Shown: positions 10,601 to 62,623 of the stretch, piece after piece
Position numbering within the stretch: position 1 is the first letter of the stretch
How the letters are laid out: each line of letters begins with the position of its first letter
IMG/VR virus record: IMGVR_UViG_3300035696_000004
Span: 155,773-219,772 of that record
Source: a virus
Lineage: Duplodnaviria; Caudoviricetes
Strand: one strand, 5' to 3'
DNA length: 64,000 nt
The notes under the pieces: generated by a model
Database searches by the model: none
What the model was told of the DNA's origin: nothing
Seen by the model: the letters and a program-made list of their open reading frames with translations, nothing else
Translations under genes and position numbers: made by a program

Positions 10601-11978
10601 CCTTTTGTCCACTTGATCCGTTGTGTCTCCCGACACGCTCTATCAAGCCGGTGCGATTCCTGGCACCCGCCTCAGGCTTTCCCTGAGGAGCAGACTATAT
10701 CTTCACCTCCAGCATGACCTGGTAAGGTGCTTCCTATTTCCCCGGAGATGGCTATCTCCCGTGCACCTAAGCACTGACCCACTTGAGTGGTACACCGTGG
10801 TAAGCGGTTAGTCGTTGAACTCCTCCCATTCTCGCTGTCGTAGCGAGGGCAGGGGTTAGCTGCGGATTACCCAATCTTTGCCTCTTTTACCGTACCTGAA
10901 TGATTAGTTCAGCCCTCACGATCATTTCTAATCATGAGTTGGTGTGCAAAGCTCTCAGGGACTTCCCGTCAATTAAAGAAGGTTTCATTAACTATTTCTA
11001 ATTAATGAGGCGGGTTGTGAAAATCCATCCATCCAGATTCTTGTCGGTATCTAATCGACTTAAAATACTGGAACGATCGACATTAAAATGCCTAGCACAT
11101 TGAGTCAACGATCCAAACTCCATTGTTTTCCCGCCTTTACTAGCGCACAGCGGGATTGCGCTGGTGCCCTTCAGACCGCGATCGTAGCGATACGGTGTTT
11201 CTGAATAGCTGTCTCGAACGTTGAATTCTTTATCGGGATAAATCTCATTCCCGTACTGCGCTAACACAGGGATTGATTTTCCTGGAGCCCCGTATAACTG
11301 GTGGCGCTTCAGAAGTTCCCTTGTCGAATAAACTTCCTCTATGGAACCGTTCGAATCTTTCACTGTAACCATGTACCTCGACGGGGGTACCAGTTCAGTT
11401 CTATTTTCATAAAACCACGGTTCAGGGTCATTCGCACACCGGAACTCATACTTCCCGGCGACTAACTTCCCAAACATTTTTGGTCGCAGATCTACTATTC
11501 TGACGTCTTTCCCTAATCCCATGAATTCAGCAGCTTGAGTTATCGAGTGGAAATAGGACACTTCTCCTGTGAAGTAATCTCTAACTCTACACGGGATGTT
11601 GTCCCGTCTCAACCCGCTATTGACAGCATGGTAATTATTCCCGGAGTAGCTTGTCCATTCGAGGTTTTCGTACCAGTTATTTCCTGGATGAGCGTCGATA
11701 TGGTTCACAACGGTAAAATTATCAGGATCGGGATTATAAACCCATGCCAAAGCGACTGCTCTATGCACGGGCAAGGTCTCTGTCTTGGATCCTCTGAAAG
11801 TATCCACGGCGAGATAGCCATTAAGAAGATAAGGGGTGAGCATTATCTTTCGTTCTACTGAAACGATTGTGCCCACTCTGTCCACGGCATAATGTTCATA
11901 TCCCGGAATTATCCGAAACATTTCATCTTCCATTCATGCTCCTTTCAACTAAAGGGATGAACGGACTTTCACAATTCC
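10601..11978 (-). mobile_element. Group I intron with HNH ORF in the nvRNAP beta gene
   Basis: P aattgacgggaa, Q aatccgcagc, R gttcaacgacta, S aagatatagtc; 5' exon ends in U with a U-G pair in a P1-like hairpin; ends in G; splicing restores GFKLTDTAGG|KGVI (RpoB GDK..GRHGNKGVI). Confidence 0.88.
10998..11933 (-). CDS. Intron-encoded HNH homing endonuclease (NUMOD4-HNH-NUMOD1 type)
   Basis: IIPGYEHYAVDRVG; VHRAVALAWV..VVNHIDAHPGNNWYENLEW; C-terminal EFGSLTQCARHFNV helix-turn-helix. Confidence 0.88.
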   Translation of the reverse strand: MEDEMFRIIPGYEHYAVDRVGTIVSVERKIMLTPYLLNGYLAVDTFRGSKTETLPVHRAVALAWVYNPDPDNFTVVNHIDAHPGNNWYENLEWTSYSGNNYHAVNSGLRRDNIPCRVRDYFTGEVSYFHSITQAAEFMGLGKDVRIVDLRPKMFGKLVAGKYEFRCANDPEPWFYENRTELVPPSRYMVTVKDSNGSIEEVYSTRELLKRHQLYGAPGKSIPVLAQYGNEIYPDKEFNVRDSYSETPYRYDRGLKGTSAIPLCASKGGKTMEFGSLTQCARHFNVDRSSILSRLDTDKNLDGWIFTTRLIN

Positions 11979-13190
11979 ACCACCAGCCGTATCAGTCAGC
12001 TTAAACCCGATGTTCGGCGTGATCTCGTATTCAATGACGAATTCGATTCGCCAATCATCCAGAGCTTCCTTGCGGTAGTTCTTTTTGATCGGGTCACGTT
12101 CGGCCATCGTATTGTGGCCGACTACCGAAATGGCTTCCACTTCCATCCGATGAAGTTCCCGGGTGATGTTCAACTTCCCGTGACGCTCCCTTCGGATGCG
12201 GCGCAGCTCATCCAGAATACCTTGGTAAAACTCTCGACGACCTTTGTCGTACTTGAGCAACTGGGTATCCATTCCGACGGGTAGGCCGACCGTATTGCTT
12301 CGGTTCTCGTGCCAGACACGGATATCTTTGATGCGACCACCCGGTCCCGCGGCATAAACGAGGTCATCGAAGACATAGTTTATTTTCCGCAGACCATAGG
12401 CACTTTGCTCGACCAGTGCAAGATCCAAGTCATAATCTCGCAGCGCCAGCAAGAGTCCGTCTGGTCTTACCTCTTCCCCAATATCAGGGAATGCTTTGAA
12501 AACCTCGTCTGTCCCCATCAGGTTAAGTGGGAAATTATTGAGCCCAAAGGAAGCCGACCTAACTTCGTACGTCTTGAACCGAAGCTCTGGCAAGACATCC
12601 TCGCAGATCATGATTCCGTCTTCAGCGACGGCTTCATGTGAGAGATAGGCGATATTGAGCTCACGCCCAAAGCAATAGTTTCCGTTCTCCGTGACAGCCG
12701 GGGAATCAAGAAAGATTTCTCCTTTTTTGATTTCTTCTCCTCGACGGAGTCTGGAGTACGGTTTTTTCTTGACGTAATCGAAACCGAAATACTGATGCTG
12801 AGAACAATAGTTCGTCAGATTGATCATCCCAATCTCGTTATTGTCCTCTCTTTCGTACAAGACCACCGTTTGCGGATTGATCTTGATCGAGTCAACATCA
12901 TTGGTTCTCTGATATCGTTCGATCTTTTTCAGGATACGCCCCTGATGAGGCATCTTCACTGAGAAGGTATATTTCCCGAATTCACGTTCCATCCCTGTTT
13001 GAATTCGGCGTTCCGTCATCCCCTTTATGATCAGGTACTGTCCGATATGGCTTGCAAACATCTGGACCCGTGAACTGGAAATCGCTCCAATGAACGGATT
13101 CAGGCCGCACGTATCGAGAAACTCCCGCCGGAGTTGGTTCTGTTCTCGATACCATGGCAAATCACTATACGTCAGCGTTTCTTGACTCAT
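11979..13190 (-). CDS. rpoB: Non-virion RNAP beta C-terminal subunit, exon 1
   Basis: SSSRVQMFASHIGQ, GRELNIAY, EDGIMI; frame stops 9 codons into the intron; spliced product about 715 aa. Confidence 0.85.
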
Positions 13191-13243
13191 TACAGAACCC
13201 TTGTTTAGGTTTTGAATCTTCTTACTGGACACAACTACTAATT

Positions 13244-13269
13244 AGTAATATGTGTCTGAAACATTTTGG
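13244..13269 (-). promoter_or_regulatory. Putative phage early promoter
   Basis: Gene strand ccaaaatgtttcagacacatattac upstream of the nvRNAP beta gene. Confidence 0.55.
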
Positions 13270-13277
13270 AGAGTTTT

Positions 13278-13625
13278 ATGGCGACCGATATTAGTAACCT
13301 CATGGCAGGTACGACACAGCTCGTATATTACGATGAAGATTTTCGAGCGGTCTTGGAAGACCACATGACGATACTCCAAACCTACACCAATACCGTGAAG
13401 GTCGCTATTCAACCTGGCGATGCGGCGACCTTTGTGAACGACTTCTACGGGCTCATGGCGTATCTGGGTGAGCCTCCTCAACGGCATTGGCTATTGATGC
13501 GGATGATGGGATTCACATCCCCTGACCAAAGCGATGAAACGCTCACCTATTACTTGAAGCCCGATACGACGTTTGTGGAGCGACTTCGCTCGTACTACAT
13601 GACCAATCATACCGTGAAGGCTTGA
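13278..13625 (+). CDS. Conserved phiKZ-like hypothetical protein
   Basis: ATG after SD ggagag; 115 aa; ends at a bidirectional hairpin at 13673-13707. Confidence 0.65.
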   Translation: MATDISNLMAGTTQLVYYDEDFRAVLEDHMTILQTYTNTVKVAIQPGDAATFVNDFYGLMAYLGEPPQRHWLLMRMMGFTSPDQSDETLTYYLKPDTTFVERLRSYYMTNHTVKA

Positions 13626-13722
13626 GTTGGGTTAATACAAAGTATGTATGGTGAAAGTAAAAAAGAAAAAGACATAGGAGAGAGGGGCGAACCCCTCTCT
13701 CCTTATGCTCTCACTTTACGAC

Positions 13723-15024
13723 TTAGAACCCAGGACCGCGACGACCGCGACCGTACGGATCAGGACGTCCAACGCCACGACCCGCGGTTTGACCGCCATT
13801 ACTCAACGTGGCACGCCCGGCGCTCGGAGGTGCACGACGCAAGACCTGGCCACGCCCCAGCCAGGGTTGAGCGGCTTGCTCGTTTTGGTACGGATCGTTG
13901 TACGGATCACGTTCATACCGTTGCTGCTGGTATTGCGGCTGTTGCCGAGCGAGGTGACGTGCGGCGAAGTCCGCGAAGTCCGCACCGCCCTTTGCCGTTT
14001 TCGCAGGAGTGACCGGTTCGACACGGCCACGAGGTTCCGGAACAGCCATCCCGATTTCAGCAGCCGTCGGTTCAGCACGCTGTTGACGAGTGACGACCGG
14101 ACGATCTTCTACCTCCTTGGCAGCTTGCTTGATCTTGTTGAAAGCCGGTGCACCTTCATTGCCAGGAAGCATCGGAATCATCCGGATCTGGTTGAGCAAG
14201 ATCTTCATGTCTTCGGCAGTAGGTACCCAAGCCATGTCGAACTTCAATGCATTCATGCCGGGGATGCCATCCCCGAACAACTCACACTGCGCATTGATTT
14301 CTTTTGCCAGATTCCGACCCAGTAGCAGCAACGATTCGAAGTACGGTGCAAACTTCGAATCACTCCCCGCGTAGTAGTTTTCGGGATGTTCGAGGTCCGG
14401 GAAGAGATACTCGAGAACCCCCAAGAGCGTATCGCGGGCTTTATTGCTGATCTTGACGCCGTGGAATTCTCCTTTGGCTGCCTTCAGTGCTGTGTAGAAC
14501 GGGAAAGATACAATCCCCGCGCGAGCGAACACCTGCTCGCCGATATGACCGCTTCGCTTCAGGTAGATCTTGACGAAGAGTTCATCTTCCTTGGTGGCCG
14601 GAATCTTCGACATGATGCTCTTGAAGGCCTGGATGGTCTTCTCATCGGCTGCCGACGCTTTCGACAGAAAAACTTGCTGAGGCGTCGAGAGCTTGGTTTG
14701 TTCAGCAGGCGAGGCGGCCAGTTCGAGCAGCAATTTGACCTGTGCGCCGATCACCTGGTTGAACCGGATGTTCATGGCCTTCCTGAACCGAGTCAGGACT
14801 TCAGATTCCCCGCAGGAAACCTCCTCCCAGCCCGGATGGAACGCGACACGCTTCGACCAATCCGAATCTGCCATGTGCTCGCGACTCGGCAAAACGAGTC
14901 GCTTACCACTCATGGTGAACGGGCGGTGGTTACCGTTTACATCTTGGGTGGATAGGCAGTCATCGCTGGTGACATGAAATCCAGCGAAGGTCAGGACACT
15001 GCGATAAAACTCGATCAGATCCAT
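13723..15024 (-). CDS. phiKZ gp70-position protein with disordered R/G/Q-rich tail
   Basis: 433-aa ORF between the gp69-like gene and the RNAP beta gene; tail ends RGVGRPDPYGRGRRGPGF. Confidence 0.7.
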   Translation of the reverse strand: MDLIEFYRSVLTFAGFHVTSDDCLSTQDVNGNHRPFTMSGKRLVLPSREHMADSDWSKRVAFHPGWEEVSCGESEVLTRFRKAMNIRFNQVIGAQVKLLLELAASPAEQTKLSTPQQVFLSKASAADEKTIQAFKSIMSKIPATKEDELFVKIYLKRSGHIGEQVFARAGIVSFPFYTALKAAKGEFHGVKISNKARDTLLGVLEYLFPDLEHPENYYAGSDSKFAPYFESLLLLGRNLAKEINAQCELFGDGIPGMNALKFDMAWVPTAEDMKILLNQIRMIPMLPGNEGAPAFNKIKQAAKEVEDRPVVTRQQRAEPTAAEIGMAVPEPRGRVEPVTPAKTAKGGADFADFAARHLARQQPQYQQQRYERDPYNDPYQNEQAAQPWLGRGQVLRRAPPSAGRATLSNGGQTAGRGVGRPDPYGRGRRGPGF

Positions 15025-15042
15025 TTTCTTTTCCTTGTTGTC

Positions 15043-16515
15043 TTAATAGCCGCTAAACTGCCGACCCGATTCATAACCACTACCGGCGAAATCTTGCGGG
15101 AGCGATATTGTCGGAAGAACTTCGTTGATGAAGTTCTCAAACCGCTCGGCTGTCGCTCTGACGTGCTGATTGTTGTACGCGAAAACCGGGGTGGCCAACG
15201 AGTTACTGAACGACGGCGCCACGAAACGCTCCGTCGGATAACCATCCAGCTCGATATCGATGATGGTATCGCCCATGAGGTCGAGAGTCATTTCGATAGC
15301 AAAGCCAATTTCACCTTGGTAGCAGATATCGTTCAGTACTTCGCAGATGGTTCGAATCCGGAGATTCTCGGCAGGATAGGTCAGATCCATGTTCGAGAAA
15401 CTGCGCAGACCCATGGGTTGGAAGGCCACTTGGGAGTTCATGGTTCGATTGGTGGCTTTGAAGGCAGCCCACGTCAGACCCGATTCCATCATGATGCCCG
15501 GGATCGATTGACTCAGGATGCAGGCGACCTGCGTGATACGGTCCCGACCGTCCCAAGGACTGGTGTCACCAGCATGATGCAGCCGGTTCCGTTCCAGATT
15601 CGGCATGATGATCGCTTCGGTCACGTCTTCGTAACCCGGAGACAACCGTTCCAGATCACGCAACGTGAAGTAGTTCGTCGAGGCCACACCTTGGATACTG
15701 GCCAGCGATTTCAGGAACGTGTCGTTCATCACAGCGGCTTCAGCGACCTGATCGCCATTACGGGCATCGCTGAAGATCGAACCGCCTGTTTTCCCGAGAG
15801 CCATCAGGGATTGAGCATCACGATAGCTCGACAGGATACGGCTGGTATAGACCGCCGAATTGGCGTTGCCATAACGGCTCTTGCGGGGCGCCGCTGTGGA
15901 CATCGTACGACCATCGATCACATCACCTTCGTCGTCCGGAAGATGTGTGGTTTGCATCTGAGCCAACAGGTCGGTCGGGCGCATCATGACCTGGTTGTTG
16001 GTGTCGATGACGTTTGCGTAGCTGTTGTTGGCGAGCAGTTGGCTGGAGTTGGCGATCACCGACCGGGGTTGCGTAACGCCATGGACGCGCACCATTTCTT
16101 CACGGATGAGGGTCGTCGAGTTGATGTAGAACTCGAGATCCGGATTGATGGTTTGTTGCAACGTGATGTCGCGCGATGCGCTGTACCCCATTACCAGCTC
16201 GGTGATCTTGCTCCCGCGAAGGTTGTCCGTTTCGACTTCCATCATGAAACGGAACCGCGGCTCATTCCAACCTTCCGGAATCGGAATGATATCCTTTTGA
16301 TCGACAGCGATGGCTGGTGCCAAAATCTGATTGGCCAGGCCCGATACCGCCATCGAGCTCAGATCCTGATTCTGCTCGATGCGTTCCGCGATCTGATTCA
16401 CGGCGTCGTGGGTAAAGTGCGCTTCGAAAGGACGCGAAAACTGCGCCCCATACGTACCCGTTTCGTGGATGAAAAAACGGGTGATTCGAACACTGCTGTT
16501 ATCGTCGAAGAACAT
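15043..16515 (-). CDS. Probable phage-nucleus import factor PicA/Imp1 homologue (phiKZ gp69 position)
   Basis: 490 aa, immediately downstream of the gp68-like subunit; identity rests on synteny and size only. Confidence 0.55.
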   Translation of the reverse strand: MFFDDNSSVRITRFFIHETGTYGAQFSRPFEAHFTHDAVNQIAERIEQNQDLSSMAVSGLANQILAPAIAVDQKDIIPIPEGWNEPRFRFMMEVETDNLRGSKITELVMGYSASRDITLQQTINPDLEFYINSTTLIREEMVRVHGVTQPRSVIANSSQLLANNSYANVIDTNNQVMMRPTDLLAQMQTTHLPDDEGDVIDGRTMSTAAPRKSRYGNANSAVYTSRILSSYRDAQSLMALGKTGGSIFSDARNGDQVAEAAVMNDTFLKSLASIQGVASTNYFTLRDLERLSPGYEDVTEAIIMPNLERNRLHHAGDTSPWDGRDRITQVACILSQSIPGIMMESGLTWAAFKATNRTMNSQVAFQPMGLRSFSNMDLTYPAENLRIRTICEVLNDICYQGEIGFAIEMTLDLMGDTIIDIELDGYPTERFVAPSFSNSLATPVFAYNNQHVRATAERFENFINEVLPTISLPQDFAGSGYESGRQFSGY

Positions 16516-16558
16516 GGGGTTTTCTTTCGTAGAAACGTGTTATCGTTAACTGCGCTTT

Positions 16559-18157
16559 TTAAAGTTGTTGAGTTCGGCTCGCCAGCGCTTGATCTCTCTG
16601 GATCTCTACCATCTCGAGAGCGAAACGTGCCAGATTGATCTTGAACTCGTAACTCAGGGAATAGTACCGAGAATTCTTGTTATTGGTCACGGTACTCAAC
16701 CATTCATCCGGGATTGTCAGTAACCATCCGTTGGCTTTGAATTGTTTTTCCAACGAATCTATCGCTTGGATTGCATGGTTTTTCTGCAAGTCCAGCTTTT
16801 TGCCAGACGTCTTGCGGCGATACGGATAAAACTTATCGAACTCTTCGAGCATGCTCTTGGGGATGCGCGCCCGACTGTCGTCCAACAGCACCGTCGGTTG
16901 GTCAAACGACCTTCTTCGATTGGTGTTAATGGCCGTGATCAGCGCAGCCAGCTCGTAATGACCACGATGCCAGAGAATGGCTTGTGCGACAGCCAAGAAT
17001 TCCACCAACGTCGAGACATCGAAGTGCTCACTCGAGTGGGTCGGGATCCGAATCGACATGACCATTTGAGCGATCTTCTCTTGGCAAGGTTCCAAGGTCT
17101 GACCAATGAGGGCTCTTGCCGATGTCAAGGACGCAGTCACCAACTCTTTCGGGATACCAGGCGCCAGCGCCTCGGCCAGTTTGTACGGCTTGTGGATAGG
17201 AGATTCGATAATTGCGATATCCCCATCCGTGACCTTCATCTTGATCTTGACGTTTTCCAGACCCGAGAGATTGCTTTCATCATTCCCGTTATCCGTCGGA
17301 GCACGCTTGTCTTTGATAGCACCTTTGAAGTTGGTATCGATCCCTTTCAGTCGATTGCAGACGAACTTGAAGATGACCTTCCCAAAGGCCTTCTTCGGAT
17401 CAATACCACGGATATCCATGCTGGAAATCTTTCGCACAATGAGGAGTGCGAGAATCCATTTTGGGATATCTTCGGAACTGATGCCGGCGATAATAGCACT
17501 CGCTAGCTTCTTTCGATCCGCCGGGAGCGAATCGATCACGTAGTCACGCAACCGAACCATAGCACCCGAGTTATAGAGCGGCGTCTTGCCCAGGAGCTGG
17601 TACGCCTCGTACTCTTTCCAGTTCGTCCCGGCACTGCGTTTGATCCGGGCAATGTACTCACCCCAGACCATATAGATCGGACGTAGGATAACCGACAAGG
17701 CGAGGATTTTCTTGTAGTCGTCCCGCAGGATGGTTTTGGTTTTGTTACCAATCATCCCATCAACGAATTCATCCGCCAGATCCGTTGGGATCGTGATACC
17801 AGATCGGAAATACACCCAATCTGCCAATTTGGCAGGATCGTGGAGTTCGACGAGCTCGGCGATATCGTCCATGAGCACGAGGGAGAGATCGTGTTCATCG
17901 AGAATCGATTCGAGGTGGTCTTTGATCTTCGACATCGAATTGAAGATGTCGCCCTGTTGTTCGTTCGGTAACGTCGACCAATAGGCGTTGATTTGTTCGA
18001 ACGGGTCGTAATCGTTCGAGTCGTCATCGTCGCGGCTATTGGTATTTTTTTCGATCAGAACAAACGTAACACGCTGTTCGTTTTTATTCTGGTCGAGACC
18101 AATGAGATGTGCTTCATTGGCGACGCTATCAAATAGTACCCCCACTTTCAAGCGCAC
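16559..18157 (-). CDS. nvRNAP specificity subunit (phiKZ gp68-like)
   Basis: 532-aa helical protein with size and position matching gp68; promoter motif upstream. Confidence 0.6.
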   Translation of the reverse strand: MRLKVGVLFDSVANEAHLIGLDQNKNEQRVTFVLIEKNTNSRDDDDSNDYDPFEQINAYWSTLPNEQQGDIFNSMSKIKDHLESILDEHDLSLVLMDDIAELVELHDPAKLADWVYFRSGITIPTDLADEFVDGMIGNKTKTILRDDYKKILALSVILRPIYMVWGEYIARIKRSAGTNWKEYEAYQLLGKTPLYNSGAMVRLRDYVIDSLPADRKKLASAIIAGISSEDIPKWILALLIVRKISSMDIRGIDPKKAFGKVIFKFVCNRLKGIDTNFKGAIKDKRAPTDNGNDESNLSGLENVKIKMKVTDGDIAIIESPIHKPYKLAEALAPGIPKELVTASLTSARALIGQTLEPCQEKIAQMVMSIRIPTHSSEHFDVSTLVEFLAVAQAILWHRGHYELAALITAINTNRRRSFDQPTVLLDDSRARIPKSMLEEFDKFYPYRRKTSGKKLDLQKNHAIQAIDSLEKQFKANGWLLTIPDEWLSTVTNNKNSRYYSLSYEFKINLARFALEMVEIQRDQALASRTQQL

Positions 18158-18208
18158 ATGTTCCCCCTTTACTCCGTATTAGAAAACACTGGATTACAAG
18201 CTCATTTC

Positions 18209-22196: not shown

Positions 22197-22198
22197 GA

Positions 22199-23380: not shown

Positions 23381-23605
23381 CTACGCTTCGGGTATTTCCA
23401 TAAACCTCTCGAAAGCCCCTGGGGTGGTGTTTTCTTTTCCGCTATGGATCAAATTGGAGATTGACGCCACAGTAGGTTTTGGCATAGCCAGGTTGCCTGT
23501 TACCTTTCGGGGTTTCTTCAAGTCAAACACGCCTTTATGGGGCGCTAGATTTTCGTGCGCTCTGGCCATGAAATTATCAAGACACAGAGTGAAGTTGAGC
23601 TGATC
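23381..23605 (-). CDS. rpoC: Non-virion RNAP beta' N-terminal subunit, exon 2
   Basis: Begins GAT CAG CTC (DQL), completing NCDFDG|D. Confidence 0.8.
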   Translation of the reverse strand, partial: DQLNFTLCLDNFMARAHENLAPHKGVFDLKKPRKVTGNLAMPKPTVASISNLIHSGKENTTPGAFERFMEIPEA

Positions 23606-24033
23606 CAATATACATTGTACACATTGCTGTGTTTTTATCAGGACGTGACTCCTGTCGGGACCGATTCCAGTCGGTGCCTGTCCGATGATTTCGCACCGGT
23701 TGAGGTCATATCTTAGCCTATACTACAGCTCTTTCCGTTTGGGGCGCACTTGCTACCCTACTCTACTCGCTTTAATCGTCGTGTCACGACGACCACCTGA
23801 CTTTATACAGATGTGATTATGCTTTCGCAATAGCTTTCGATGACCGTCGAACACACTTCCCAGTGGGAAGCTTCGTTGCGGATTGCCCGACACATGCCTC
23901 TTTTACCGTACCTGAATGATTAGTTCAGCCACATTCCTATTACTAAGAATGTTTGGTGTGCACTGTCATTTACGGATGCTCAGTCCGTGGGTGTCCCCGT
24001 CAGTTAGAAAAGTTTAACGATGGCAATCAATTC
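23606..24033 (-). mobile_element. ORF-less group I intron (428 nt) in the RNAP catalytic motif
   Basis: P aactgacgggga, Q aatccgcaac, R gttcgacggtca with matching S aagatatgacc; exon ends GGT, intron ends G; splicing restores NCDFDGD. Confidence 0.85.
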
Positions 24034-25302
24034 ACCATCAAAGTCGCAGTTCATCGCGACGACGGCTAGGAACGATATCGAAACGGTCGGATCACTCATG
24101 TCTGTCTTGACACGCGAGATCCCTACAGCTTGACACGAGCCTCGATTCAGACTCGGGTTGCGCTGCATAGTGGCCGGAATAGCTCCGCCAGGTGCTTCGG
24201 CTATCAGTTCCTTAAACAACTCATCCAGGAGCGGATGATACTGCGTGGTATATTCATTCAACAGCGCGAAGATATCATTCGGGCTGAATCCACGTGCTTC
24301 TAGCTTATTTGCCAAATGCACGCGCAATACCGTCACCGCCAAGTTCCACGGGATATGGATCTCGTCGTAGAAGTGCGAACCCGTCAACGATGATACGACA
24401 GCCCGGAAACTGAAGTGGGCTCTCGAACCGAACACGTGTTTACGAAGGATCCCTTGCTTCTTCCCCAACGTAAAGCGATAGACCGACTCGTAATACGCGG
24501 CGAGCTGGACAATCGTTTTCAATGTTCTGTTCTCTTTCACCTGGACGGTGAAGTTGTTGAGATCAGAATCAATCCCCGCCATCGTCTGGATCGCATCGAT
24601 CGAATCCAGAATGATCGGGTCCATGTAGCGACCCACATTCGTATTCTCTACGACGAGTAGGGCGCGATTAGGTAGCGGGATATAGTCAGAGAAGATGGCA
24701 TCCCGGTATCGTTCCAGAAACTTCTTGAAGCTGGTCTTCTTTCGGCCAGGCTTCGCGAAGAGCCGCATCGAATAGAGTCCATCTATAATGGCATCGAAGT
24801 TCTGGATGAACGCGTTATAGCCTCGCCTTACATTGAGGCCCATCAGCATTTCATTGACAGCCGTGATGTATTTGCTTTGCTTCGAGGATACCTTGTAATA
24901 CGGATCACAAATCCAACGAATGACTTCGAAGCCGCCTTTCGTGAACTCCCTTTTCATCATCGTCCAGACAACAGGGTTGATTAACTTTTCAACCCCATTA
25001 GGACTACGGATCCAGAGGAGCGGATCGATCTTCTTTTCAAACTTTGCAACGACCGGAGTGCCGCACTCTGGGCAGATGACAGGATCTTCTGCATTCAGCT
25101 TATGCTCACCAAACGTCGCATTACACGAGCAAGCTGGGATGTTGGATAACACATCCCCTTCAGTTGCCGTATAGATGAGTTCGTTGAGTTGGCGTTTCGA
25201 GTCTTCTGATTGATTGTTGTAGTCATTCAGAATAATCGGGATGTGCGCGGTCTGCTGCTGGAACAACAGGTCATGATTCTCGAGACTAAGCGATACCCCC
25301 AT
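24034..25302 (-). CDS. rpoC: Non-virion RNAP beta' N-terminal subunit, exon 1 (phiKZ gp55-56.1-like)
   Basis: Zn ribbon CSC..CPEC, GILRKHVFGSR, RNPSL, and NCDFDG (NADFDGD motif). Confidence 0.88.
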
Positions 25303-25332
25303 TTTCAATCCTTTTTTACAAATTGAGGGAAA

Positions 25333-54726: not shown

Positions 54727-55197
54727 TCAGTCGGACAGGTCGCTCAGGCCGCCGGACAGTTCTTTCAGATGGGTCTTCACGGCGGCCATTTGGCCGACGG
54801 ACTTGTAGGCGTAGGTTTCGACCTTCGAGGTGACGATACCGAAGGCGTAGTTCTGCTCGCCGTCGGCACCACCGGGTACCTTGATCTTGCGGTCCAGGGT
54901 CAGCGAGATCTTGTCGTTGCCGATCTTCGGAACTTCCAGGGTGACCCGGTTGATTTCCGGATGGCTCTTCAGGAACGGGATGCCTTGTTCGCCGAGGACG
55001 TTGTGGGTGGCGGCCAGGAATTCGGAGTCGAACTTGGCTTGGGCTTCGTAGGCTTCTACGCTGCCGCCGGAGGCGACCAGTGCTTCTTTGTATACGTCAG
55101 CGCGGACAGCGGCCACGCCGGAGGTTTCGTCGATCTTGAAGTCAGCAGCAGCCAGGTTGTCGGTATGCTTGCGTACGGTTTCGTTGATGGTAGCCAT
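54727..55197 (-). CDS. Conserved hypothetical protein, likely highly expressed
   Basis: 156 aa, strong codon bias, SD aaggga. Confidence 0.7.
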   Translation of the reverse strand: MATINETVRKHTDNLAAADFKIDETSGVAAVRADVYKEALVASGGSVEAYEAQAKFDSEFLAATHNVLGEQGIPFLKSHPEINRVTLEVPKIGNDKISLTLDRKIKVPGGADGEQNYAFGIVTSKVETYAYKSVGQMAAVKTHLKELSGGLSDLSD

Positions 55198-55263
55198 CGA
55201 TTTGTTTCCCTTTGAGGAGTGTTATTTAAAAAAATCCAATATTACACGCACTTCTACAGCGAC

Positions 55264-55572
55264 TTATTCGACGAGCGCCTTTTTGAGCGCTACCTTCGAA
55301 ATGAGTTTCCCCGACACCGTCGGGTTCCCGAACTTGACAGCCTTTTTGAAGATCTCTTTGCCGCCGAGGACAGTGTATTGCCCCAGCTGCTCGACGAGGA
55401 TCAGCATCTTGTTGTCGAACTCAGGAAGGAAAGCAGAGGTCACGACCTTGGCTTTCGGATCGCCAGGAGAGTTGATCTTTCCGATATCCACCGTGACAGA
55501 TGGACCAGAGTTTGCTTTCGCAACCACTTTGTCCAGAATGTACGTATGGCCATTGAACTTCAGCGTTTCCAT
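55264..55572 (-). CDS. Hypothetical basic protein
   Basis: Reads on the minus strand (track labels it + in error); ATG 55572 with SD gagg, TAA at 55264-55266. Confidence 0.6.
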   Translation of the reverse strand: METLKFNGHTYILDKVVAKANSGPSVTVDIGKINSPGDPKAKVVTSAFLPEFDNKMLILVEQLGQYTVLGGKEIFKKAVKFGNPTVSGKLISKVALKKALVE

Positions 55573-55631
55573 TCGTAACCTCATGAAGTGTGTTGTCCCA
55601 GTGCATACCAAGGGACAAGGTAGATATTTTT

Positions 55632-56030
55632 TTACTGACCCCAGCCCATGAGGTACGAGCCAAAGTCAAGATACACCCAACCTTGAAACAGTCGGGCTTT
55701 GATACCTGCTTCCGCCAGGGCGGCCGCATTTTCTTCAACCAGTTCTTGATTTCCCCAGCCGGTGACTTCAGCATTATCGAAGTTGACTTCGACAAGATAG
55801 GTGCCGATGTCATCGTACACCATTTCAACGAGCGTCCCGAGATCAAACGGAACGGCGACGTCATTGTACATCGTGAAGTCATCGATGTTGATCTGGGGTT
55901 GCGTGTAAGGGGGCTGCGCGCCTCTGTGAGCGACGATCCACTTACCGACTGCATCAGCACCTTGGAGTAGCTGTGCACGCGCTACAAAGCCTTGTAGCGA
56001 GTCTTCTTTGTTGATGGCGATCTGGGTCAT
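55632..56030 (-). CDS. Hypothetical protein
   Basis: 132 aa, ATGA overlap with the upstream gene. Confidence 0.6.
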   Translation of the reverse strand: MTQIAINKEDSLQGFVARAQLLQGADAVGKWIVAHRGAQPPYTQPQINIDDFTMYNDVAVPFDLGTLVEMVYDDIGTYLVEVNFDNAEVTGWGNQELVEENAAALAEAGIKARLFQGWVYLDFGSYLMGWGQ

Positions 56031-56404
56031 TTTTTCACCTGCTCCTTGGCAGCATCCATGCTGGCTACGATTTCAGTCAGCCGCCCGATGAATTTCAGGA
56101 TATCTTCTTTTTCCCAGATGGCGTATAGCCGAGTATCATCTTCAAAGAGACCATCTCGGCCTGCGCAGTCAAAATCCATAGGTAAGGAGATAGACGGGTC
56201 AGCCTCAGCCGCCTCCAACTTGTCCATGAAGTCGTCGCTGCCATCACATTCGATAGCGTCCGAAATACTCTGGACGACAAAATCGTTGGGGAAGTCGTCT
56301 CCGCCACAAAAGATCTCGACCTCATCAATGACGCGAGGTGTGTAACTGGAGAACAGCGTTTGATGCGGCAGTGCTCGAAGCTCTCTTCGGGTAATGATGC
56401 GCAC
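56027..56404 (-). CDS. Hypothetical acidic protein (early)
   Basis: GTG 56404 with SD aaggga; the track start at 56482 runs through the promoter. Confidence 0.6.
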   Translation of the reverse strand: MRIITRRELRALPHQTLFSSYTPRVIDEVEIFCGGDDFPNDFVVQSISDAIECDGSDDFMDKLEAAEADPSISLPMDFDCAGRDGLFEDDTRLYAIWEKEDILKFIGRLTEIVASMDAAKEQVKK

Positions 56405-56438
56405 AGTTAGATCCCTTCTTAGAGATTTGTTAAGATAG

Positions 56439-56471
56439 CTCAGGTATGTGATATAGGTTTGAAATATTCTA
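56439..56471 (-). promoter_or_regulatory. Putative phage early promoter
   Basis: 33 nt identical to the chimallin promoter region 27337-27369. Confidence 0.75.
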
Positions 56472-56510
56472 CATTCGGGCATAAAGACCAGCCCGTAGGC
56501 TGGTCTGGGG

Positions 56511-56852
56511 TTACGCGATGTTCAAACCTTCGACGCCCCGTTCGAGACGTTTCTTGGTTCTCGATTCAAAAGCCGCCAGAGCCGCTTCCATGTAGGCAAT
56601 CGCCAGTGCGTTTTCCTCACATGGGAATCTCGAATCCAGTACCTTGGTCCGATCGATCAGAACAGCCAGCAAACTTTCACTGGTCAATCCGTTTACACCG
56701 GCTTCTTTTACCGGACCCTTCTGGAAATCGATATACGTCGTCGATTTACCTGCCGTGATCTGATACCGGTGACCCGATACATCCTCGCCATCTGCCGTCT
56801 TACGGAAGGCGTTCACAGCAACGCCGTTTAAGTCCGTGTGAATTCGTGACAC
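56511..56852 (-). CDS. tad1: Tad1-family anti-defence sponge protein
   Basis: HRYQI..IDFQKGPVKE..NG..SESLLAVLIDR..FPCEENALAI..ME.AL...R..R+ERGVEG.N matches the Tad1 pattern; GTG 56852 has SD aggagg (ATG 56984 would add a transmembrane helix). Confidence 0.75.
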   Translation of the reverse strand: MSRIHTDLNGVAVNAFRKTADGEDVSGHRYQITAGKSTTYIDFQKGPVKEAGVNGLTSESLLAVLIDRTKVLDSRFPCEENALAIAYMEAALAAFESRTKKRLERGVEGLNIA

Positions 56853-56988
56853 GTGATCCTCCTGTTTACCTGTAATATCTTCTCTTCCCATTTCGTAGAT
56901 AATCCACGCCATAAAGAAGAAAGCGATCCCGCCAAGAGAGTGAGCGTTTTGATGCACCCAATTCCAAATGGGATGGTAATGCATACGC

Positions 56989-57753
56989 TTACCAGCGCGC
57001 CCAACCCGGCTTCTGTTCTTCGGACATTTGCCAATTCATGGCATTGAAGAGTTCAGCACCCGTGAGGAGCGCCGATTCCATTCCGAGACCCAGGGATTGC
57101 TTTTCCTGAGCCGAGCAGACAGCACGCTGAATTTCACCGCGAGAAAGCAGAGCATCATCCAGCGATTCGAGAGCTGGCGATTTCCACTTGTTGGCAAAAG
57201 CGATCCCGGGTTCCGTTACCCGGTCAAAGGTCACGACCGTACGAAGAATCCGGTTCATGGTGCCGCGCACCCAGACATCTTCCGTGAAGGAACGAATCGA
57301 GAAGCAAACGTTCTCGCCTGGGTTTTGCAGAGAGCGCTCAAAGGCCGCACCATGGGGTCCCGATGGGCAGACTCGACTCATGATCGCAATGACTTTGCGA
57401 CCTTCGTCATCTTTGATGCGATCGAAGTCGAGCCAGAGCTCTTTGTGCAAGCAGCAGACACGATCTTCATAGATCGACATCACCCGTTCGATGAATTGCT
57501 CTTTCGTCATTCCAGGCAACCACTTCGGGTGACCTTCTTCACCTTTCAGAGACCCCCGAGATACCCGACGCTGGAGTTGAGCCGAGGATTCAAAGATGCT
57601 TCGTGCCTCCTCGTAAGGGTAGTACTGACCGACGGAGTTGTAGACGTTCAAGCCGCCAACGACCATTTCGTAACAACCGTCAGCATCCGGTTTCAAGATC
57701 CCTTGTTTACCTGTCGGGAGTGCGATACACCCGAAGCGAATTTGATTTGCCAT
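56989..57753 (-). CDS. Prohead maturation serine protease (phiKZ gp175-like)
   Basis: GEEGHP (His), FSIRS (Ser), VTFDRVTEPG (Asp); 254 aa. Confidence 0.82.
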   Translation of the reverse strand: MANQIRFGCIALPTGKQGILKPDADGCYEMVVGGLNVYNSVGQYYPYEEARSIFESSAQLQRRVSRGSLKGEEGHPKWLPGMTKEQFIERVMSIYEDRVCCLHKELWLDFDRIKDDEGRKVIAIMSRVCPSGPHGAAFERSLQNPGENVCFSIRSFTEDVWVRGTMNRILRTVVTFDRVTEPGIAFANKWKSPALESLDDALLSRGEIQRAVCSAQEKQSLGLGMESALLTGAELFNAMNWQMSEEQKPGWARW

Positions 57754-57754
57754 G

Positions 57755-58489
57755 TTACGTCCTTAGCAGAGCTTCAATACGTTCAGTTCGATCAGCAGGA
57801 TCCACCAATGCACTAATGACACCCGCCCCGTAATAACTCCCGGCCAGCTTGTTCGTCGTATTGGTAGCGCCATATTGCACACTTCTCAGCGGAATAAAGG
57901 CTGGCGGACTCGACAGCACTTCATCCATCTTCTTGATGACCGTCCGGTAATACTTCGTACGATCTTTTTCTTCACGAGCCAGAATTGACACGATCAACTC
58001 CGTGACCTCCTGCTCGGTCCCGATGTTAGCACCCGCATGATAGCGAGCACTATCGAAAATGCGACCAAAGTCGATGTAGTTCATGTACCAAGGTACTCGA
58101 CCTTTCGACATGAGTTCATCGTAAATCCGATACGTGATCACGTCGTGTTTGACGAGATTGACGCTCTTCATGATGGTACTGCCGGCCGGGAAGAAGAATT
58201 CGTAGTACTCTTCATCCCCGATCAAAATCTTTACCGTCGACGTAGGGTCGATGTGAATCATAGCGTTCACAAGCGAGGTTCCGTAGTAGAGTTCCTCCAC
58301 TACGATACCGTAGACACCCACGATATACGTTTCAATCCCGACTTCCGCCAAGCCACGCTCTGCAAATCGGACAGGGATATAGATCTTGACATCTTTCTTT
58401 GCAACCAGTCGTTCATCAGGCAACTCGATTAGAGCCGCGTGAACGCGCTCTGGCGCTCTCAATAGTTTCCGAGGGTCCATCGTACTCAC
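57755..58489 (-). CDS. phiKZ gp176-position protein, possible virion RNAP beta' C-terminal piece
   Basis: 244 aa adjacent to the protease; identity from synteny and recall only. Confidence 0.45.
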   Translation of the reverse strand: MSTMDPRKLLRAPERVHAALIELPDERLVAKKDVKIYIPVRFAERGLAEVGIETYIVGVYGIVVEELYYGTSLVNAMIHIDPTSTVKILIGDEEYYEFFFPAGSTIMKSVNLVKHDVITYRIYDELMSKGRVPWYMNYIDFGRIFDSARYHAGANIGTEQEVTELIVSILAREEKDRTKYYRTVIKKMDEVLSSPPAFIPLRSVQYGATNTTNKLAGSYYGAGVISALVDPADRTERIEALLRT

Positions 58490-58496
58490 CTAGAGA

Positions 58497-58997
58497 TTAA
58501 AAGTCACCAGGGGCCACCTGGAAGCAAGGAATGCCTAATTCTCGCCACATCTTGACGACCTTGTCTCGATCTTCGAAGACGCAGAGCACGGTGTCATGAT
58601 TAATCTTCCCATCAAAGACCCACTGACGCTTCATGACGTCGTCAGGTGTGGTGTCATCTTCCTTGGGGCGCATCAGGAGTTGATACGTCAGGTCATTCCC
58701 TTTTCCAATGTGTTTCTCGATCCATTCCCGGGTCTCGTCTTCAACCTCATCACTACGACATGTCGCAATGAGAATCTTAAAACCTGCCGCTTGCATGTGT
58801 ACAAGGATCTGAATGACCGCATCAACAGGCTTGTCATCCACACAGGCTTTATAGAAGGAAGCGTAATCCTCTTGTCCTTCATTTTCGATGAAGTGCAAAC
58901 GATGCGTGATGTCAGCCAGTGTTCCATCAAGATCAAAGACCACCAACGGCGTTTGACCTGGGTTCAATTGCTCGAGAGCCAATTGTAAAAGAGACAT
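58497..58997 (-). CDS. HAD phosphatase, stand-alone T4 Pnkp-type 3'-phosphatase domain
   Basis: VFDLDGTL motif I, ATCR, MRPKED, FEDRDKVVKMWRELG..CFQV. Confidence 0.8.
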   Translation of the reverse strand: MSLLQLALEQLNPGQTPLVVFDLDGTLADITHRLHFIENEGQEDYASFYKACVDDKPVDAVIQILVHMQAAGFKILIATCRSDEVEDETREWIEKHIGKGNDLTYQLLMRPKEDDTTPDDVMKRQWVFDGKINHDTVLCVFEDRDKVVKMWRELGIPCFQVAPGDF

Positions 58998-59044
58998 AAT
59001 GAAATCCTAGAGACCCAGCACCGAAGTGCTGGGTCGAGGTCAGG

Positions 59045-60481
59045 TTACTCCACACGCATCATGCTGGCGACCCAGGCACAAATGTACTCGAGCGTGGCCA
59101 TGGCTGCCGCTTCACGAGGATTGATCCCGGGTACGGTTTCCAGATACTTGTTGATGCCGAACAAGATCTTGTCAGCAGACGTGTACGGGAAACGAGCACC
59201 ATGCACCAACTTGAGGCAGACATTGCTGAAGCTGGTATCAATCTCTGCTTCACGAATCGTTTCGAGGAGTTCATCGAATCGTTTCATGATGACATCGACG
59301 TTGCCTGCCACGGCGGCTTCACCTTCCACCATGTCACGCAGTTGCTGACGGAAAGTGAAATGCAGCGCATCCTTGATACGAGCGAAGCGACGTGCTTTTT
59401 CCACCGAGGCTTGCAGGACAGCAAACCGATTCCAGTCCAGCTTCAGTTCCGCAGCATGTTCGTTGATGGTTTGGATGGACGTGTACACCGGCGTATTCAG
59501 CAGGTTACCAAACAGCATCTCGTTTTCACCGCCTTCGGCGATCCACTTACGATAGAGTTCATCGTTGACCGTGATCTTGTTCCGAGTGCTGGAAACGACC
59601 ATGTTGCCGTTTTTCATCATGCTGTCGTAACGGCCGATTTCCCGCATGACTCGCTTAGCGGCCTGGTTGCGATACTGGATGACCAGGTCTTCATAGACCT
59701 CGAGCGTCATTTCGACGCCCGGCATCGGTTCGCTTTGTTCGAACAACGTCCGCGTGATCAGATACACAGCCAGTGCGTATTCGGCACCGTTAGTGCGATC
59801 TTCCAGAATGTCATTGAACGTCAACGAATCCGTAACATCGTCAAGCGCGTTGACTTGGAACACCATTTCCCAGAGACGGATAAAGAAATCCGCTCCTTTC
59901 GAAGCCGCCCACATCTCGATGTCCGTGTCGACATTGCCAGCGCCCGTCTTCATCAACCCGATGATTTCCGATACCGGGATCGTCGGTAGCTTCATCGCAC
60001 GAGCCGGAGTCAAGAACGGACCTTCAGCAAAGCGTTCTACCGATTGCGTAAAGGAAGCGTTCAAGAAAGGCTTCGGCGTTTCTTTGATGATGACTTCCAT
60101 GCCAAGCAACGATGCCGGTGTCAACGAAGCAATGGACAACTTCGTTTTCTCGATCAGTTCTTCCACGACCGGCACGACGACAGTCCGAGCAAACGTCAGG
60201 TGGTTCCGTACCGCTTTTGCGATAATCGGCACCGCCGAATCAAGAGCGATGTCGTGTTCCGAGAACTTCACTTCATCACTGACAGGGGCGTTGGCCAGGA
60301 CTTCGATAAAGTCCAGATCGAGTTCGGCTTGACCCGTCTGCGTTTTGAAGTGTTCTGCGGTGCGAGTGGCGATGACGAGTTCAGCCAGAGGCGTCCCTTC
60401 GATCGGCATCACGGTCATCCCAGCAGCTTCGACGATGCTGGAGAGAGGAATAGCGCTTTGAATGGCTTCAGATGTCAGCAT
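59045..60481 (-). CDS. Conserved virion-associated protein (phiKZ gp177 position)
   Basis: 478 aa between the protease block and the vRNAP beta gene. Confidence 0.6.
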   Translation of the reverse strand: MLTSEAIQSAIPLSSIVEAAGMTVMPIEGTPLAELVIATRTAEHFKTQTGQAELDLDFIEVLANAPVSDEVKFSEHDIALDSAVPIIAKAVRNHLTFARTVVVPVVEELIEKTKLSIASLTPASLLGMEVIIKETPKPFLNASFTQSVERFAEGPFLTPARAMKLPTIPVSEIIGLMKTGAGNVDTDIEMWAASKGADFFIRLWEMVFQVNALDDVTDSLTFNDILEDRTNGAEYALAVYLITRTLFEQSEPMPGVEMTLEVYEDLVIQYRNQAAKRVMREIGRYDSMMKNGNMVVSSTRNKITVNDELYRKWIAEGGENEMLFGNLLNTPVYTSIQTINEHAAELKLDWNRFAVLQASVEKARRFARIKDALHFTFRQQLRDMVEGEAAVAGNVDVIMKRFDELLETIREAEIDTSFSNVCLKLVHGARFPYTSADKILFGINKYLETVPGINPREAAAMATLEYICAWVASMMRVE

Positions 60482-60482
60482 C

Positions 60483-60677
60483 TTAATTCCCCAGTCGGCG
60501 TGCCAGGGCTTCCTGGAACTTGGTTTGAGAGAGATCGTAAAGGACCGATCGTGTCAGTTCAGACCCGTTGAAGGTATCGGCGACTTCGTTACCGAGGACC
60601 TCCTGAGCCACCAGGCGCACGAGTTCACTCCCATTTGCGAGTGTCGTCACCGTCATGATGCTTTCCATTTTATTCAT
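60483..60677 (-). CDS. Small hypothetical protein
   Basis: 64 aa, stop abuts the next ATG. Confidence 0.5.
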   Translation of the reverse strand: MNKMESIMTVTTLANGSELVRLVAQEVLGNEVADTFNGSELTRSVLYDLSQTKFQEALARRLGN

Positions 60678-60737
60678 CGCCGAATCCTCAGCAGCCTGTT
60701 AAAAATCAGTGGAGCCCCGATAAGGGCTCCACCCGTG

Positions 60738-60944
60738 TTACGAAATATATACTGCAAATGCATTCTTCCCGATCACATCGAGCAAGACATTCGTCGTCCC
60801 GATAGCTTCAGGGGACGTCACAATCCGTGCCGCAATACTTCGATAACCGAAATAGGCATCGACGATCTTGCCGGATGCTGTCCGAACTTCTCGAGTCATG
60901 ACTTCACCGAAGACCGATTTCATCTGGTTAGCGAAAACGGCTTT
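60738..60944 (-). CDS. rpoB: Virion RNAP beta subunit, last exon
   Basis: Starts AAA GCC GTT (KAVFANQMKSV) after the intron terminal G. Confidence 0.8.
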   Translation of the reverse strand, partial: KAVFANQMKSVFGEVMTREVRTASGKIVDAYFGYRSIAARIVTSPEAIGTTNVLLDVIGKNAFAVYIS

Positions 60945-62623
60945 CCTTCTGTCCACTTGATCCGTTGTGTCTCCCGACACGCTCTATCAAGCCGGTGCGC
61001 TTATTGGCACCCGCCCTATGTCACCATAGGGAGCAGACTATATCTTCACCCTCTTATTCAAAGTAGGGTGTTCCCTGTTTCCACGAGAGCTATTGCTCTC
61101 CGTGCACCTAAGCACTGACCCACTCGGGCTGTACACCGTGGTAAGCGGTTAGTCGTTGAACGTTCTCCATGCCCTCACGGGTGTAGGAGCTTCGCTGCTA
61201 AAGAGATCCTTAGGATCTACGGTTGTCTCTACCCTAGTCTTTTCAAACCTACTCAGAGAGCACGTCTATGCTTTCGCATTCCGCTTTGGTGTCTAGGATG
61301 TAACGAGAGTTTCCAGCAATTAAGGGAAATACATTCAGTCATTTCTGACTAAACGGACTATGATGTTTACAGCACTTCAATAACCCAGTTTCCATACGGT
61401 TGTTTTGTATCTATGCGGTTCTTGAGAGTTTTCTTATCTAAACCAAGAAAACTCCGCAACTGGCGAGAACTCTTAAATATCTTGAATTCTCTGGTCATTT
61501 GATTCAGAACCCTAAAGCACTTGGCTTCGTTAAACGCTACAAAACCAAATTCTAAAGGCCAGTCCTCCAACATGAACTTTCTGAAATAATAACCACCGAC
61601 CGTTTTTGGTGTTTCGGATCGCATGACAGTATAAATCCTATCGATCGTCACGCCTGTGAGAACAGACAGAGATGAGAGGGTTTTTGCCATGATTTCCTTA
61701 CCAGTTTCCACGTGTAAAGCTTGAAAAGGTCCGCGCTCAATTCTCGGAGCGGAGATTCTTTCAAACGACGTATAGTACCAGTCGCTCTTACCGTCAGTGC
61801 GGAATTCGTAAAGACCTAAAAACAGATTTGGCACTACTGTTCCGTTGAGCACACGTTTGATCGGCTTTATTGCTCCCTTTAAACCGATATCTCGCATACC
61901 TTCCGAAATAGACGAATAGTTTTTCACAGCGCCAGTCTTAACATTCCTAACTTCACAAGGGATGTTATCGGGTCTCAGATTCGCATTGACAGCGTGAATG
62001 ACATTTTCTCTAGACGTCACCCATTCAAGATTACTTAAATCAAGGTTGAGTTTATCGCCGTCCCTGTGATTTACGTAGATTTTATTAATTGGATCATCGT
62101 TTACGACAAAGGCTCTGGCTAACAGAAGATGGACGAGAACTTGCCGCCAACGTTTTTTGTCTGGATCGAGAATGCTAACGACCGGATACCCGTAGGGTCC
62201 TATGCGTTCCGACAAGATCTTTCCAGAAAACATTGATTTGACTTTCCCGACATTATTGACCGAGAATCTCGGAAATCCAGGAATTATCCTAAATCCACCA
62301 CCCGCCTCGATCGGGGAATCAAAAGTCATTAGATGTCCGCATTTGAATTTGAGAACTTTTGACGCTACAGGAACGAAAGCAATTTTCCTGAGGTCCTCTA
62401 TTCCAAAACACAAAACATCGTAATGGCCTAAAAGCTCCTCCCAATGTTCACCAGATACGATTTTTCCATTTAATACGGCCGTGTTGCTTGGAACAACCGA
62501 GCTTACCGTACTTCTTTCCCTGAGTAATCGAATTGCGCAAGTCGAGTTTGAAGACATCCCCTATACTCCTAGAATAGGTATCACAGGAGAATAGTAAAAT
62601 ATCAAAAAACCCTTACATCTTTA
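60945..62623 (-). mobile_element. Group I intron with HNH ORF in the vRNAP beta gene
   Basis: P aattgctggaaa, R gttcaacgacta, S aagatatagtc; splicing restores GVGD|KAVFANQMK; 3' core nearly identical to the 10601-11978 intron. Confidence 0.88.
61367..62557 (-). CDS. Intron-encoded HNH homing endonuclease
   Basis: IIPGFPRFSVNNVG; VHLLLARAF..YVNHRDGDKLNLDLSNLEW; several NUMOD1-like repeats. Confidence 0.88.
   Translation of the reverse strand: MSSNSTCAIRLLRERSTVSSVVPSNTAVLNGKIVSGEHWEELLGHYDVLCFGIEDLRKIAFVPVASKVLKFKCGHLMTFDSPIEAGGGFRIIPGFPRFSVNNVGKVKSMFSGKILSERIGPYGYPVVSILDPDKKRWRQVLVHLLLARAFVVNDDPINKIYVNHRDGDKLNLDLSNLEWVTSRENVIHAVNANLRPDNIPCEVRNVKTGAVKNYSSISEGMRDIGLKGAIKPIKRVLNGTVVPNLFLGLYEFRTDGKSDWYYTSFERISAPRIERGPFQALHVETGKEIMAKTLSSLSVLTGVTIDRIYTVMRSETPKTVGGYYFRKFMLEDWPLEFGFVAFNEAKCFRVLNQMTREFKIFKSSRQLRSFLGLDKKTLKNRIDTKQPYGNWVIEVL

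Follow-up and report, generated by a model that had tools for sequence, protein, structure and literature searches.

How did two paralogous polymerase genes of one phage come to be interrupted, at look-alike but non-homologous codons, by introns with nearly identical 3' ends? The question is raised by a 64,000-nucleotide (nt) window at the very end of a terminally repeated jumbo-phage record of 219,772 bp (IMG/VR record IMGVR_UViG_3300035696_000004, positions 155,773 to 219,772), in which intron A lies in the gene for the beta-like subunit of the non-virion RNA polymerase (RNAP; gene A) and intron B in its virion RNAP counterpart (gene B). The phage, which comes from short-read peat metagenomes and has Burkholderia and Ralstonia jumbo phages as its nearest cultured relatives, is predicted to be nucleus-forming and phiKZ-like, because it encodes a nuclear-shell protein (phrog_4795) and both split RNAP subunit sets. 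A preliminary description, made from the sequence alone, had explained the likeness by ectopic spread of one intron to the other gene through reverse splicing. Our analysis leads us, with fair confidence, to a different answer: these are two mobile group I introns, each with a homing-site lineage of its own, that exchanged a 3' module while co-resident at nonallelic positions in one genome, and whose endonucleases are related through an old retargeting.

That both stretches are group I introns was borne out by Rfam model RF00028, both scores (Table 1) lying above its gathering score of 50 bits; over the whole genome this model had exactly two matches, introns A and B, both on the minus strand. 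The proposed boundaries also stood, since the profile positions of the flanking exons are contiguous in both genes (403 and 404 of phrog_3295; 1354 and 1355 of phrog_3148). Exon 1 ends in GGTGGT (..TAGG) in gene A and in GGTGAT (..GVGD) in gene B, and removal of the introns restores both host reading frames exactly, at a conserved motif. The B junction is contiguous in 10/10 intron-less relatives; gene A is a single open reading frame (ORF) in five IMG/VR relatives and is likewise uninterrupted in FLC9 (L029), making six intron-less cases in all. The last base is U in the two 5' exons and G in the two introns, the terminal G being present in all members of the intron family that were compared. 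With an in-frame stop immediately past the junction in gene B and after 9 codons in gene A, both polymerases would indeed need splicing, a dependence already known for phiKZ (PMC10914365, PMC11512511); the prediction of introns carrying the endonucleases gp56, gp72, and gp179 in its RNAP genes goes back to 2002 (Mesyanzhinov 2002, as cited in both of these papers). Introns A and B are predicted to be self-splicing and mobile. No RNA run contained the sequence, and the ligated, intron-less form was absent among the peat metagenome contigs; neither observation is evidence for or against splicing or mobility.

Table 1. Positions of the introns, their parts, and their host exons in the window
Feature	Position	Strand	Description	Evidence
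Gene A exon 1	11979..13232	-	Non-virion RNAP beta-like subunit, phiKZ gp71 homologue; start codon approximate	phrog_3295 profile 5-403, E 9e-120
Gene A exon 2	9665..10600	-	phiKZ gp73 homologue; begins AAAGGCGTC (KGVIC..)	phrog_3295 profile 404-692; Pfam RNA_pol_Rpb2_6
Intron A	10601..11978	-	Group I, 1378 nt; HNH ORF in P1 loop, then ribozyme core	RF00028, 75.9 bits at 10670-11032
ORF A	10998..11933	-	HNH homing endonuclease, 311 amino acids (aa), phiKZ gp72 orthologue	57% identity over full length, E 3e-129; phrog_59, E 8e-34
Guide of intron A	11009..11013	-	CC-G-CC, pairing with GGU/GG (P1; the slash marks the splice site)	Position just 5' of P2 common to family; covariation
3' ribozyme module of intron A	10601..10820	-	P7 to terminal G	83% identical to module of B
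Gene B exon 1, C-terminal part	62624..64000	-	Virion RNAP beta-like subunit, phiKZ gp178 homologue	phrog_3148 profile 904-1354, E 6e-199
Gene B exon 2	60738..60944	-	68 aa; begins AAAGCCGTT (KAVFANQMK..)	phrog_3148 profile 1355-1420
Intron B	60945..62623	-	Group I, 1679 nt; begins with in-frame TAA; HNH ORF in P1 loop	RF00028, 66.9 bits at 61014-61392
ORF B	61367..62557	-	HNH homing endonuclease, 396 aa, AgentSmith gp112 orthologue	31.6% identity over 361 aa, E 2e-53
Guide of intron B	61356..61360	-	UA-G-UC, pairing with GAU/UA (P1)	Same AUA-G-UCC in AgentSmith, L041, and L042
3' ribozyme module of intron B	60945..61161	-	P7 to terminal G	83% identical to module of A
Intron C	23606-24033	-	ORF-less, group I-like, in non-virion beta' N-terminal subunit, NCDFDG/DQLN	Exons match phrog_2987 1-421 and 422-475

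Introns A and B belong to one family that populates RNA and DNA polymerase genes of nucleus-forming jumbo phages. When 17 ribozymes of this family were cut at the conserved P7 strand and their halves compared separately, the two introns proved to be a mosaic. As described before, there is a single mismatch in their last 55 nt, the longest identical run being 50 nt (permutation p = 0.0007) and further runs of 31, 25, and 21 nt lying elsewhere in the 3' half. The label of sister introns holds for the 3' halves (~220 nt), which are 83% identical and for which the next best match of either intron is 59%; it fails for the 5' halves, which at 52% identity are no closer than those of unrelated family members (Fisher test for the difference between halves, p = 1.5e-11) and are of different structural subtypes, A having a P5 extension and B none. 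Instead, the best 5' matches of A reach 61 to 63% and include introns at its own site (loci L045 and L047, and phage PhiPA3), and those of B reach 61% with its site orthologues L041 and L042. The claim that most of the P7-P8-P9 region is shared likewise needs dividing: P7, P7.1, an insert after P7.2, P9.1, and P9.2 are shared, while P3', P8, P9, and one inserted hairpin differ. Among the 17 family members, only A and B carry the ~38-nt insert after P7.2, and only they have an extra hairpin of the same sequence in P9.2, where L041 has an unrelated inner hairpin. Tails vary widely even among site orthologues, and since the post-P7.2 insert and the 50-nt tail are not conserved elsewhere, they argue for exchange.

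A metagenomic misjoin across a repeat would produce shared 3' ends as well, and the source is a short-read peat metagenome in which contigs break at the shared blocks. We nevertheless give such an artifact almost no credence: in three separate runs, contigs fitting the shared tail continue into exon 2 of gene A; in one peat metagenome run (X1), a 50-nt unitig over the identical run is found at ~2x flanking depth; and each P3 pairs with its own P3' (CCUUCU with AGGAAG in A, UUCCCU with AGGGAA in B). Judging from the patchy distribution of such introns, A and B were most likely acquired or inherited by ordinary endonuclease-driven homing. Their near-identical 3' ends would have arisen later, when the module from P7 to the terminal G was exchanged by a process that we infer to be homologous recombination or gene conversion, for which the core conserved throughout the family, e.g., the P7 strand GTTCAACGACTA, may have provided crossover homology.

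That each intron has a lineage of its own emerged from relatives at the same sites. A megablast of both regions against the phage collection gave no matches. Exact-pattern scans with the shared blocks gave nothing or chance matches: viral contigs yielded nothing twice and one 17-nt match without an intron, and metagenomes yielded five matches, none of them (0/5) an intron. A related-locus search from gene A exon 1 also yielded no relatives, which were found instead by a genome search. Intron A separates GG from KGV in the beta subunit of the non-virion RNAP, at the gp71/gp72/gp73 site of phiKZ; in phiKZ, gp71 ends in ..FHGG and gp73 begins with KGVIC, a 1218-nt group I intron with gp72 lying between them (junction ..CATGGTGGT/intron/AAGGGCGTCATCTG). 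PhiPA3, with a 450-nt intron without ORF, and L045 to L047 have the same arrangement, the latter being the three of three fetched contexts of ORF A homologues, of which there are at least 200 at 48 to 67% identity. In ORF A itself, Pfam detects an I-HmuI NUMOD-like module (31 bits; cutoff, 27), with NUMOD1 just under the cutoff, and the HNH domain is detected only via phrog_59 and via homology to ORF B. Besides the site (GGTGGT/AAR GGN GT), the phiKZ intron shares with A the position of the HNH ORF and an NN-G-CC guide; it differs in its reduced P4-P6 and its tail, whereas in A P5 is extended and the 3' half contains two additional inserts. Among phiKZ-like phages, site A is polymorphic, holding an intron with an ORF, an intron of ~300 nt without one, or nothing. 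The metagenomic orthologue L045 is a two-endonuclease intron: in addition to the HNH ORF in its P1 loop, it has a second ORF of 220 aa (LAGLIDADG_2; L045:2715-3377) just past the P7 strand.

In the beta subunit of the virion RNAP, intron B separates GD from K(G)V, at a site where 287 of 289 phage records and all 10 IMG/VR relatives have no intron. The site is occupied in Bacillus phage AgentSmith, which reads ..ATTGGTGAT/1668-nt intron/AAAGTAGTT (..GIGD/intron/KVVFGNQMK) and whose intron scores 81.8 bits with RF00028. ORF B, in which Pfam finds HNH_3 (28.3 bits; cutoff, 24.8) and NUMOD4 just under the cutoff, is homologous to AgentSmith gp112 over its whole length, N-terminal extension included, and has ~50 metagenomic homologues at 36 to 48% identity. 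In all four of the contexts fetched (L041 to L044), a virion beta exon 1 ending in GG(T or C)GAT is accompanied by an orthologous HNH ORF of ~410 aa, and where the contig extends (L041 to L043), exon 2 follows as a 67-aa ORF starting AAA..GTGTTTG. The AgentSmith intron resembles B further in its site (GGTGAT/AAAG, after GD), its initial TAA, and its guide, AUA-G-UCC; unlike B, it has an A-type 5' half with P5 extension and a 3' half without the inserts of A and B, and it resides in a very distant host phage. In the AgentSmith record (L037, MW749006, 113777-121974), exon 1 of virion RNAP beta forms the end of gene 111, which is annotated "putative HNH endonuclease," exon 2 corresponds to gene 113 ("hypothetical"), and the intron between them is unannotated.

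The gene for the virion-packaged beta subunit, gp178 in phiKZ (PMC11620839), is host to a second homing site, GD/K, which is apparently undescribed (we found no description of the site or its lineage, and the Bacillus phage case is misannotated) and is widespread in uncultured phages. The virion beta introns of 201phi2-1 and PhiPA3 sit at another site, after DD (cf. PMC11620839). That of PhiPA3, with gp210, shares with B the intron family, the host gene family, and the superfamily of HNH nicking endonucleases; it differs in its site (E. coli D675) and in its endonuclease clade. HNH introns are known from chimallivirus polymerase genes, and the gp210 intron has provided proof of their homing and of their ability to serve in competition, as a weapon between coinfecting phages (Birkholz et al. 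2024; PMC11620839).

The likeness of the two targets, another claim that we can confirm, amounts to 12 of 15 nt between the ligated sequences GGTGGT/AAAGGCGTC (A) and GGTGAT/AAAGCCGTT (B), with 7 of the 12 identities in the 3' exon. Only 13 other 15-mers among 432,574 positions of the intron-removed genome match site A equally well, and the likeness is not due to chance (odds of coincidence, ~3e-5). The sites do fall at non-homologous codons, eight apart, A preceding the second Lys and B the first Lys of the GDK...NKG motif. In a collinear HMMER alignment of the virion RNAP beta family with Thermus beta, the GDK of one falls opposite that of the other, and the second Lys lines up with the Lys of NKG; local-mode hhalign of the two beta families gave one 18-residue anchor consistent with the eight-codon offset, and global mode gave nothing useful. 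Gene A reads GFKLTDTAGG/KGV where the canonical motif is GDKxxxxxGN/KGV, and the intron-less relatives of gene B all read GD/KGV (codons AAR GGN GTN), K-G-V being common to this site and site A. We attribute the existence of look-alike targets to the G-x-K-G-V encoded at either site and to the sister-clade relation of the two endonuclease lineages (see below).

Two further observations concern the exons at these sites. The residue after the site B Lys (window positions 60939-60941) is Gly in 10/10 intron-less relatives (L004 to L013) and A, T, G, V, or V in the intron-bearing alleles (the window phage, L037, and L041 to L043), a variation that could mean that constraint on this residue is relaxed or altered when an intron is present. 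At site A, the first ~41 nt of exon 2 (10560-10600) are near-identical to L047:1700-1740 (~37/41 by eye) in an alignment that is otherwise ~65% identical; this may be a co-conversion tract or mere motif conservation.

Could recognition at the RNA level have produced the likeness of the targets? In all family members, the guide occupies the same position, just 5' of P2, and introns with an ORF hold that ORF in the P1 loop; near the 5' splice site and inside the ORFs, where a guide was also sought, no convincing pairing was found. The arrangement is seen most compactly in the ORF-less DNA polymerase intron of PhiPA3, where GGAU/UAA, a loop, and UUA-G-UCC form a P1 hairpin just before P2. Site A introns have the guide NN-G-CC pairing with GGU/NN, and site B introns have UA-G-UC(C) pairing with GAU/UA; at site A, intron bases +1 and +2 covary with the guide (GG with CC in A, AA with UU in phiKZ and L045, UC with GA in PhiPA3). 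In intron B, the proposed guide is overlapped by the first stem (P2) of the Rfam alignment, and we retained it because of its conserved position and the covariation. P1 thus consists of three exon bases (GGU or GAU) and two bases of the intron, and the guides of A and B differ by a single base (GCC versus GUC) that tracks exon position -2. Since only 3 exon nt are paired, since no general P10 reaching the 3' exon was found among the family introns compared, and since 7 of the 12 identities lie in that exon, RNA pairing cannot explain the 15-nt likeness, and spread by reverse splicing is left without specific support. An endonuclease, in contrast, can account for a target of this length.

Ectopic transposition of group I introns by reverse splicing, as in ribosomal DNA, needs a guide pairing of 4 to 6 nt and leaves introns related over their whole length. 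Introns A and B resemble the ribosomal case in being related introns at non-homologous sites with a short sequence likeness, and differ from it in their short guide pairing, which takes in just 3 exon nt, and in a relatedness confined to one half of the intron. The same considerations bear on a recent copy of the whole intron from one RNAP beta paralogue to the other, by reverse splicing, reverse transcription, and recombination, with later replacement of the ORF. Such an event would fit the near-identical tail, the 3' inserts confined to A and B, the 12/15 identity of non-homologous sites, which is unlikely to arise by chance, and the match of each guide to its own exon triplet. We consider it very unlikely all the same. 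The 5' halves (52% identical) differ in subtype, the ORFs are only 35% identical and each is orthologous to same-site ORFs in distant phages, and each intron is nearer to its own site orthologues in these parts, the 3' halves alone being nearest to one another; moreover, the guide of A (GCC) mismatches the B exon (GAU) at -2, P1 reads only 3 exon nt, and there is no P10 for the 3' exon, where most of the site likeness resides. The preliminary description had itself named long independent inheritance as evidence against its view, and this is what the relatives reveal: with orthologues and an HNH lineage at its own site for each intron (phiKZ, PhiPA3 without the ORF, and L045 to L047 for A; AgentSmith and L041 to L044 for B), neither is a recent copy of the other.

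The two ORFs had been described as different HNH ORFs, which is correct in that they represent distinct lineages; they are not unrelated, however, but homologous (35% identity over 187 aa, E 1e-26). Both belong to the I-HmuI-like HNH group by their HNH motif and NUMOD-type modules, and from this membership and the example of PhiPA3 gp210 (PMC11620839), we infer that they would nick intron-less alleles site specifically. In the N-terminal nuclease domain, the proteins of sites A and B are closer to each other than to those of any other site lineage sampled. In an unrooted maximum-likelihood tree of the HNH domain, the A-site and B-site proteins together are separated from gp179, gp210, L012, and L022 with support of 96/95, the support for the B-site clade being 82/91. 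This sister-clade relation of the HNH lineages makes it plausible that a switch from one look-alike site to the other took place in the distant past; the likeliest origin of the look-alike targets would be an old, DNA-level retargeting of endonuclease and intron from one site to the look-alike in the paralogue. A more specific version is possible, and we put it forward tentatively: one ancestral cassette of intron and HNH gene would have jumped between the RNAP beta paralogues to a look-alike G-x-K-G-V eight codons off, the endonuclease would have diverged, and the co-resident introns would have kept exchanging modules, in a form of concerted evolution.

The opposite extreme, fully independent arrivals, would leave the 3' likeness to selection (through a shared splicing cofactor or common tertiary contacts) and that of the targets to the G-x-K-G-V peptide. 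It has some merit, in that the identical blocks are broken by diverged hairpins with compensatory changes, as expected under purifying selection, the P7-P7.1 block is conserved in other phages too, and coding for the same pentapeptide largely yields the identity of the targets. Convergence, however, cannot make two homologous insertions at the same place with identical runs of 25 and 50 nt, there is free variation among the tails of site orthologues, the two HNH lineages group as sister clades, and an unrelated site matching at 12 or more of 15 positions has a chance of ~3e-5, so that we regard this explanation as improbable.

Several points weigh against the combination of separate lineages, module exchange, and old retargeting that we favor. 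The identity of the 3' modules is patchy, with P3', P8, P9, and the second inserted hairpin differing, the hairpin by five compensated pairs; a single conversion tract does not explain this pattern, for which one must assume repeated events or else strong selection acting on the blocks that are identical. The 31-nt run covering P7-P7.1 is near-identical in L047 and 201phi2-1 as well and, for this reason, is a sign of constraint and not of exchange. In their tails, A and B show features of the PhiPA3 intron at site A and also of L041 at site B, so that the module may have passed from A to B or from B to A. As to the endonucleases, the tree from which their sister relation was obtained is unrooted and has no more than four outgroup lineages. 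Finally, Oxford Nanopore (ONT) data did not show splicing of the homologous phiKZ introns (PMC10914365).

Mosaic phage introns with independently evolving ORFs are classical, and A and B are a neat but fairly ordinary case of them. The DNA polymerase genes of HMU phages reportedly carry similar group I introns with divergent ORFs, and in phage beta22, gene, intron, and ORF are said to have evolved independently. As in those systems, ribozyme, ORF, and host gene have separate histories here and modules are reassorted by recombination; the difference is that the exchange took place between two nonallelic introns in paralogous genes of one genome and that the part exchanged is the 3' half of the ribozyme. 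The general picture of how such elements work is unchanged. What is new, besides the GD/K site and its lineage, is the evidence for exchange of ribozyme halves between nonallelic introns of one genome, together with a pair of sister endonuclease lineages aimed at look-alike, non-homologous codons of paralogues, which bears on how such enzymes acquire targets. The exchange may have been favored because a common RNA module would then govern the splicing of both polymerases. There is also a caution in these results: local near-identity between introns should not be taken for evidence of a recent jump.

A third intron of the window, C, was missed by Rfam even at E values up to 0.01 and has GGTCA with TGACC for P7 instead of GACTA with TAGTC. 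Its exons (24034-25308 and 23384-23605, minus strand) belong to a gene that adjoins the nuclear-shell gene. An identical 36-nt block is present in the P5 extensions of A (10879-10914) and C (23895-23930), both on the minus strand, against 59% identity in the remainder of the 5' halves, and because of this second case involving A, exchange of short modules among the introns of one genome may be recurrent; the first 22 nt of the block are also conserved in L023, an intron of another phage. In phiKZ, the gp179 intron (L003, 186.2-187.8 kb) splits gp180 at ..LGAD/FDGD, and two IMG/VR relatives (L022 and L023) have introns in the equivalent beta' catalytic motif. Most introns of the family insert directly after a GAU Asp codon and start with UAA.

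The linear record is opened within the virion RNAP beta gene. The first ~930 codons of gene B are at the opposite end of the record (G000:2-2818), and the gene thus spans both ends (62621-64000 of the window plus G000:2-2818), the terminal repeat accounting for an overlap of ~40 codons.

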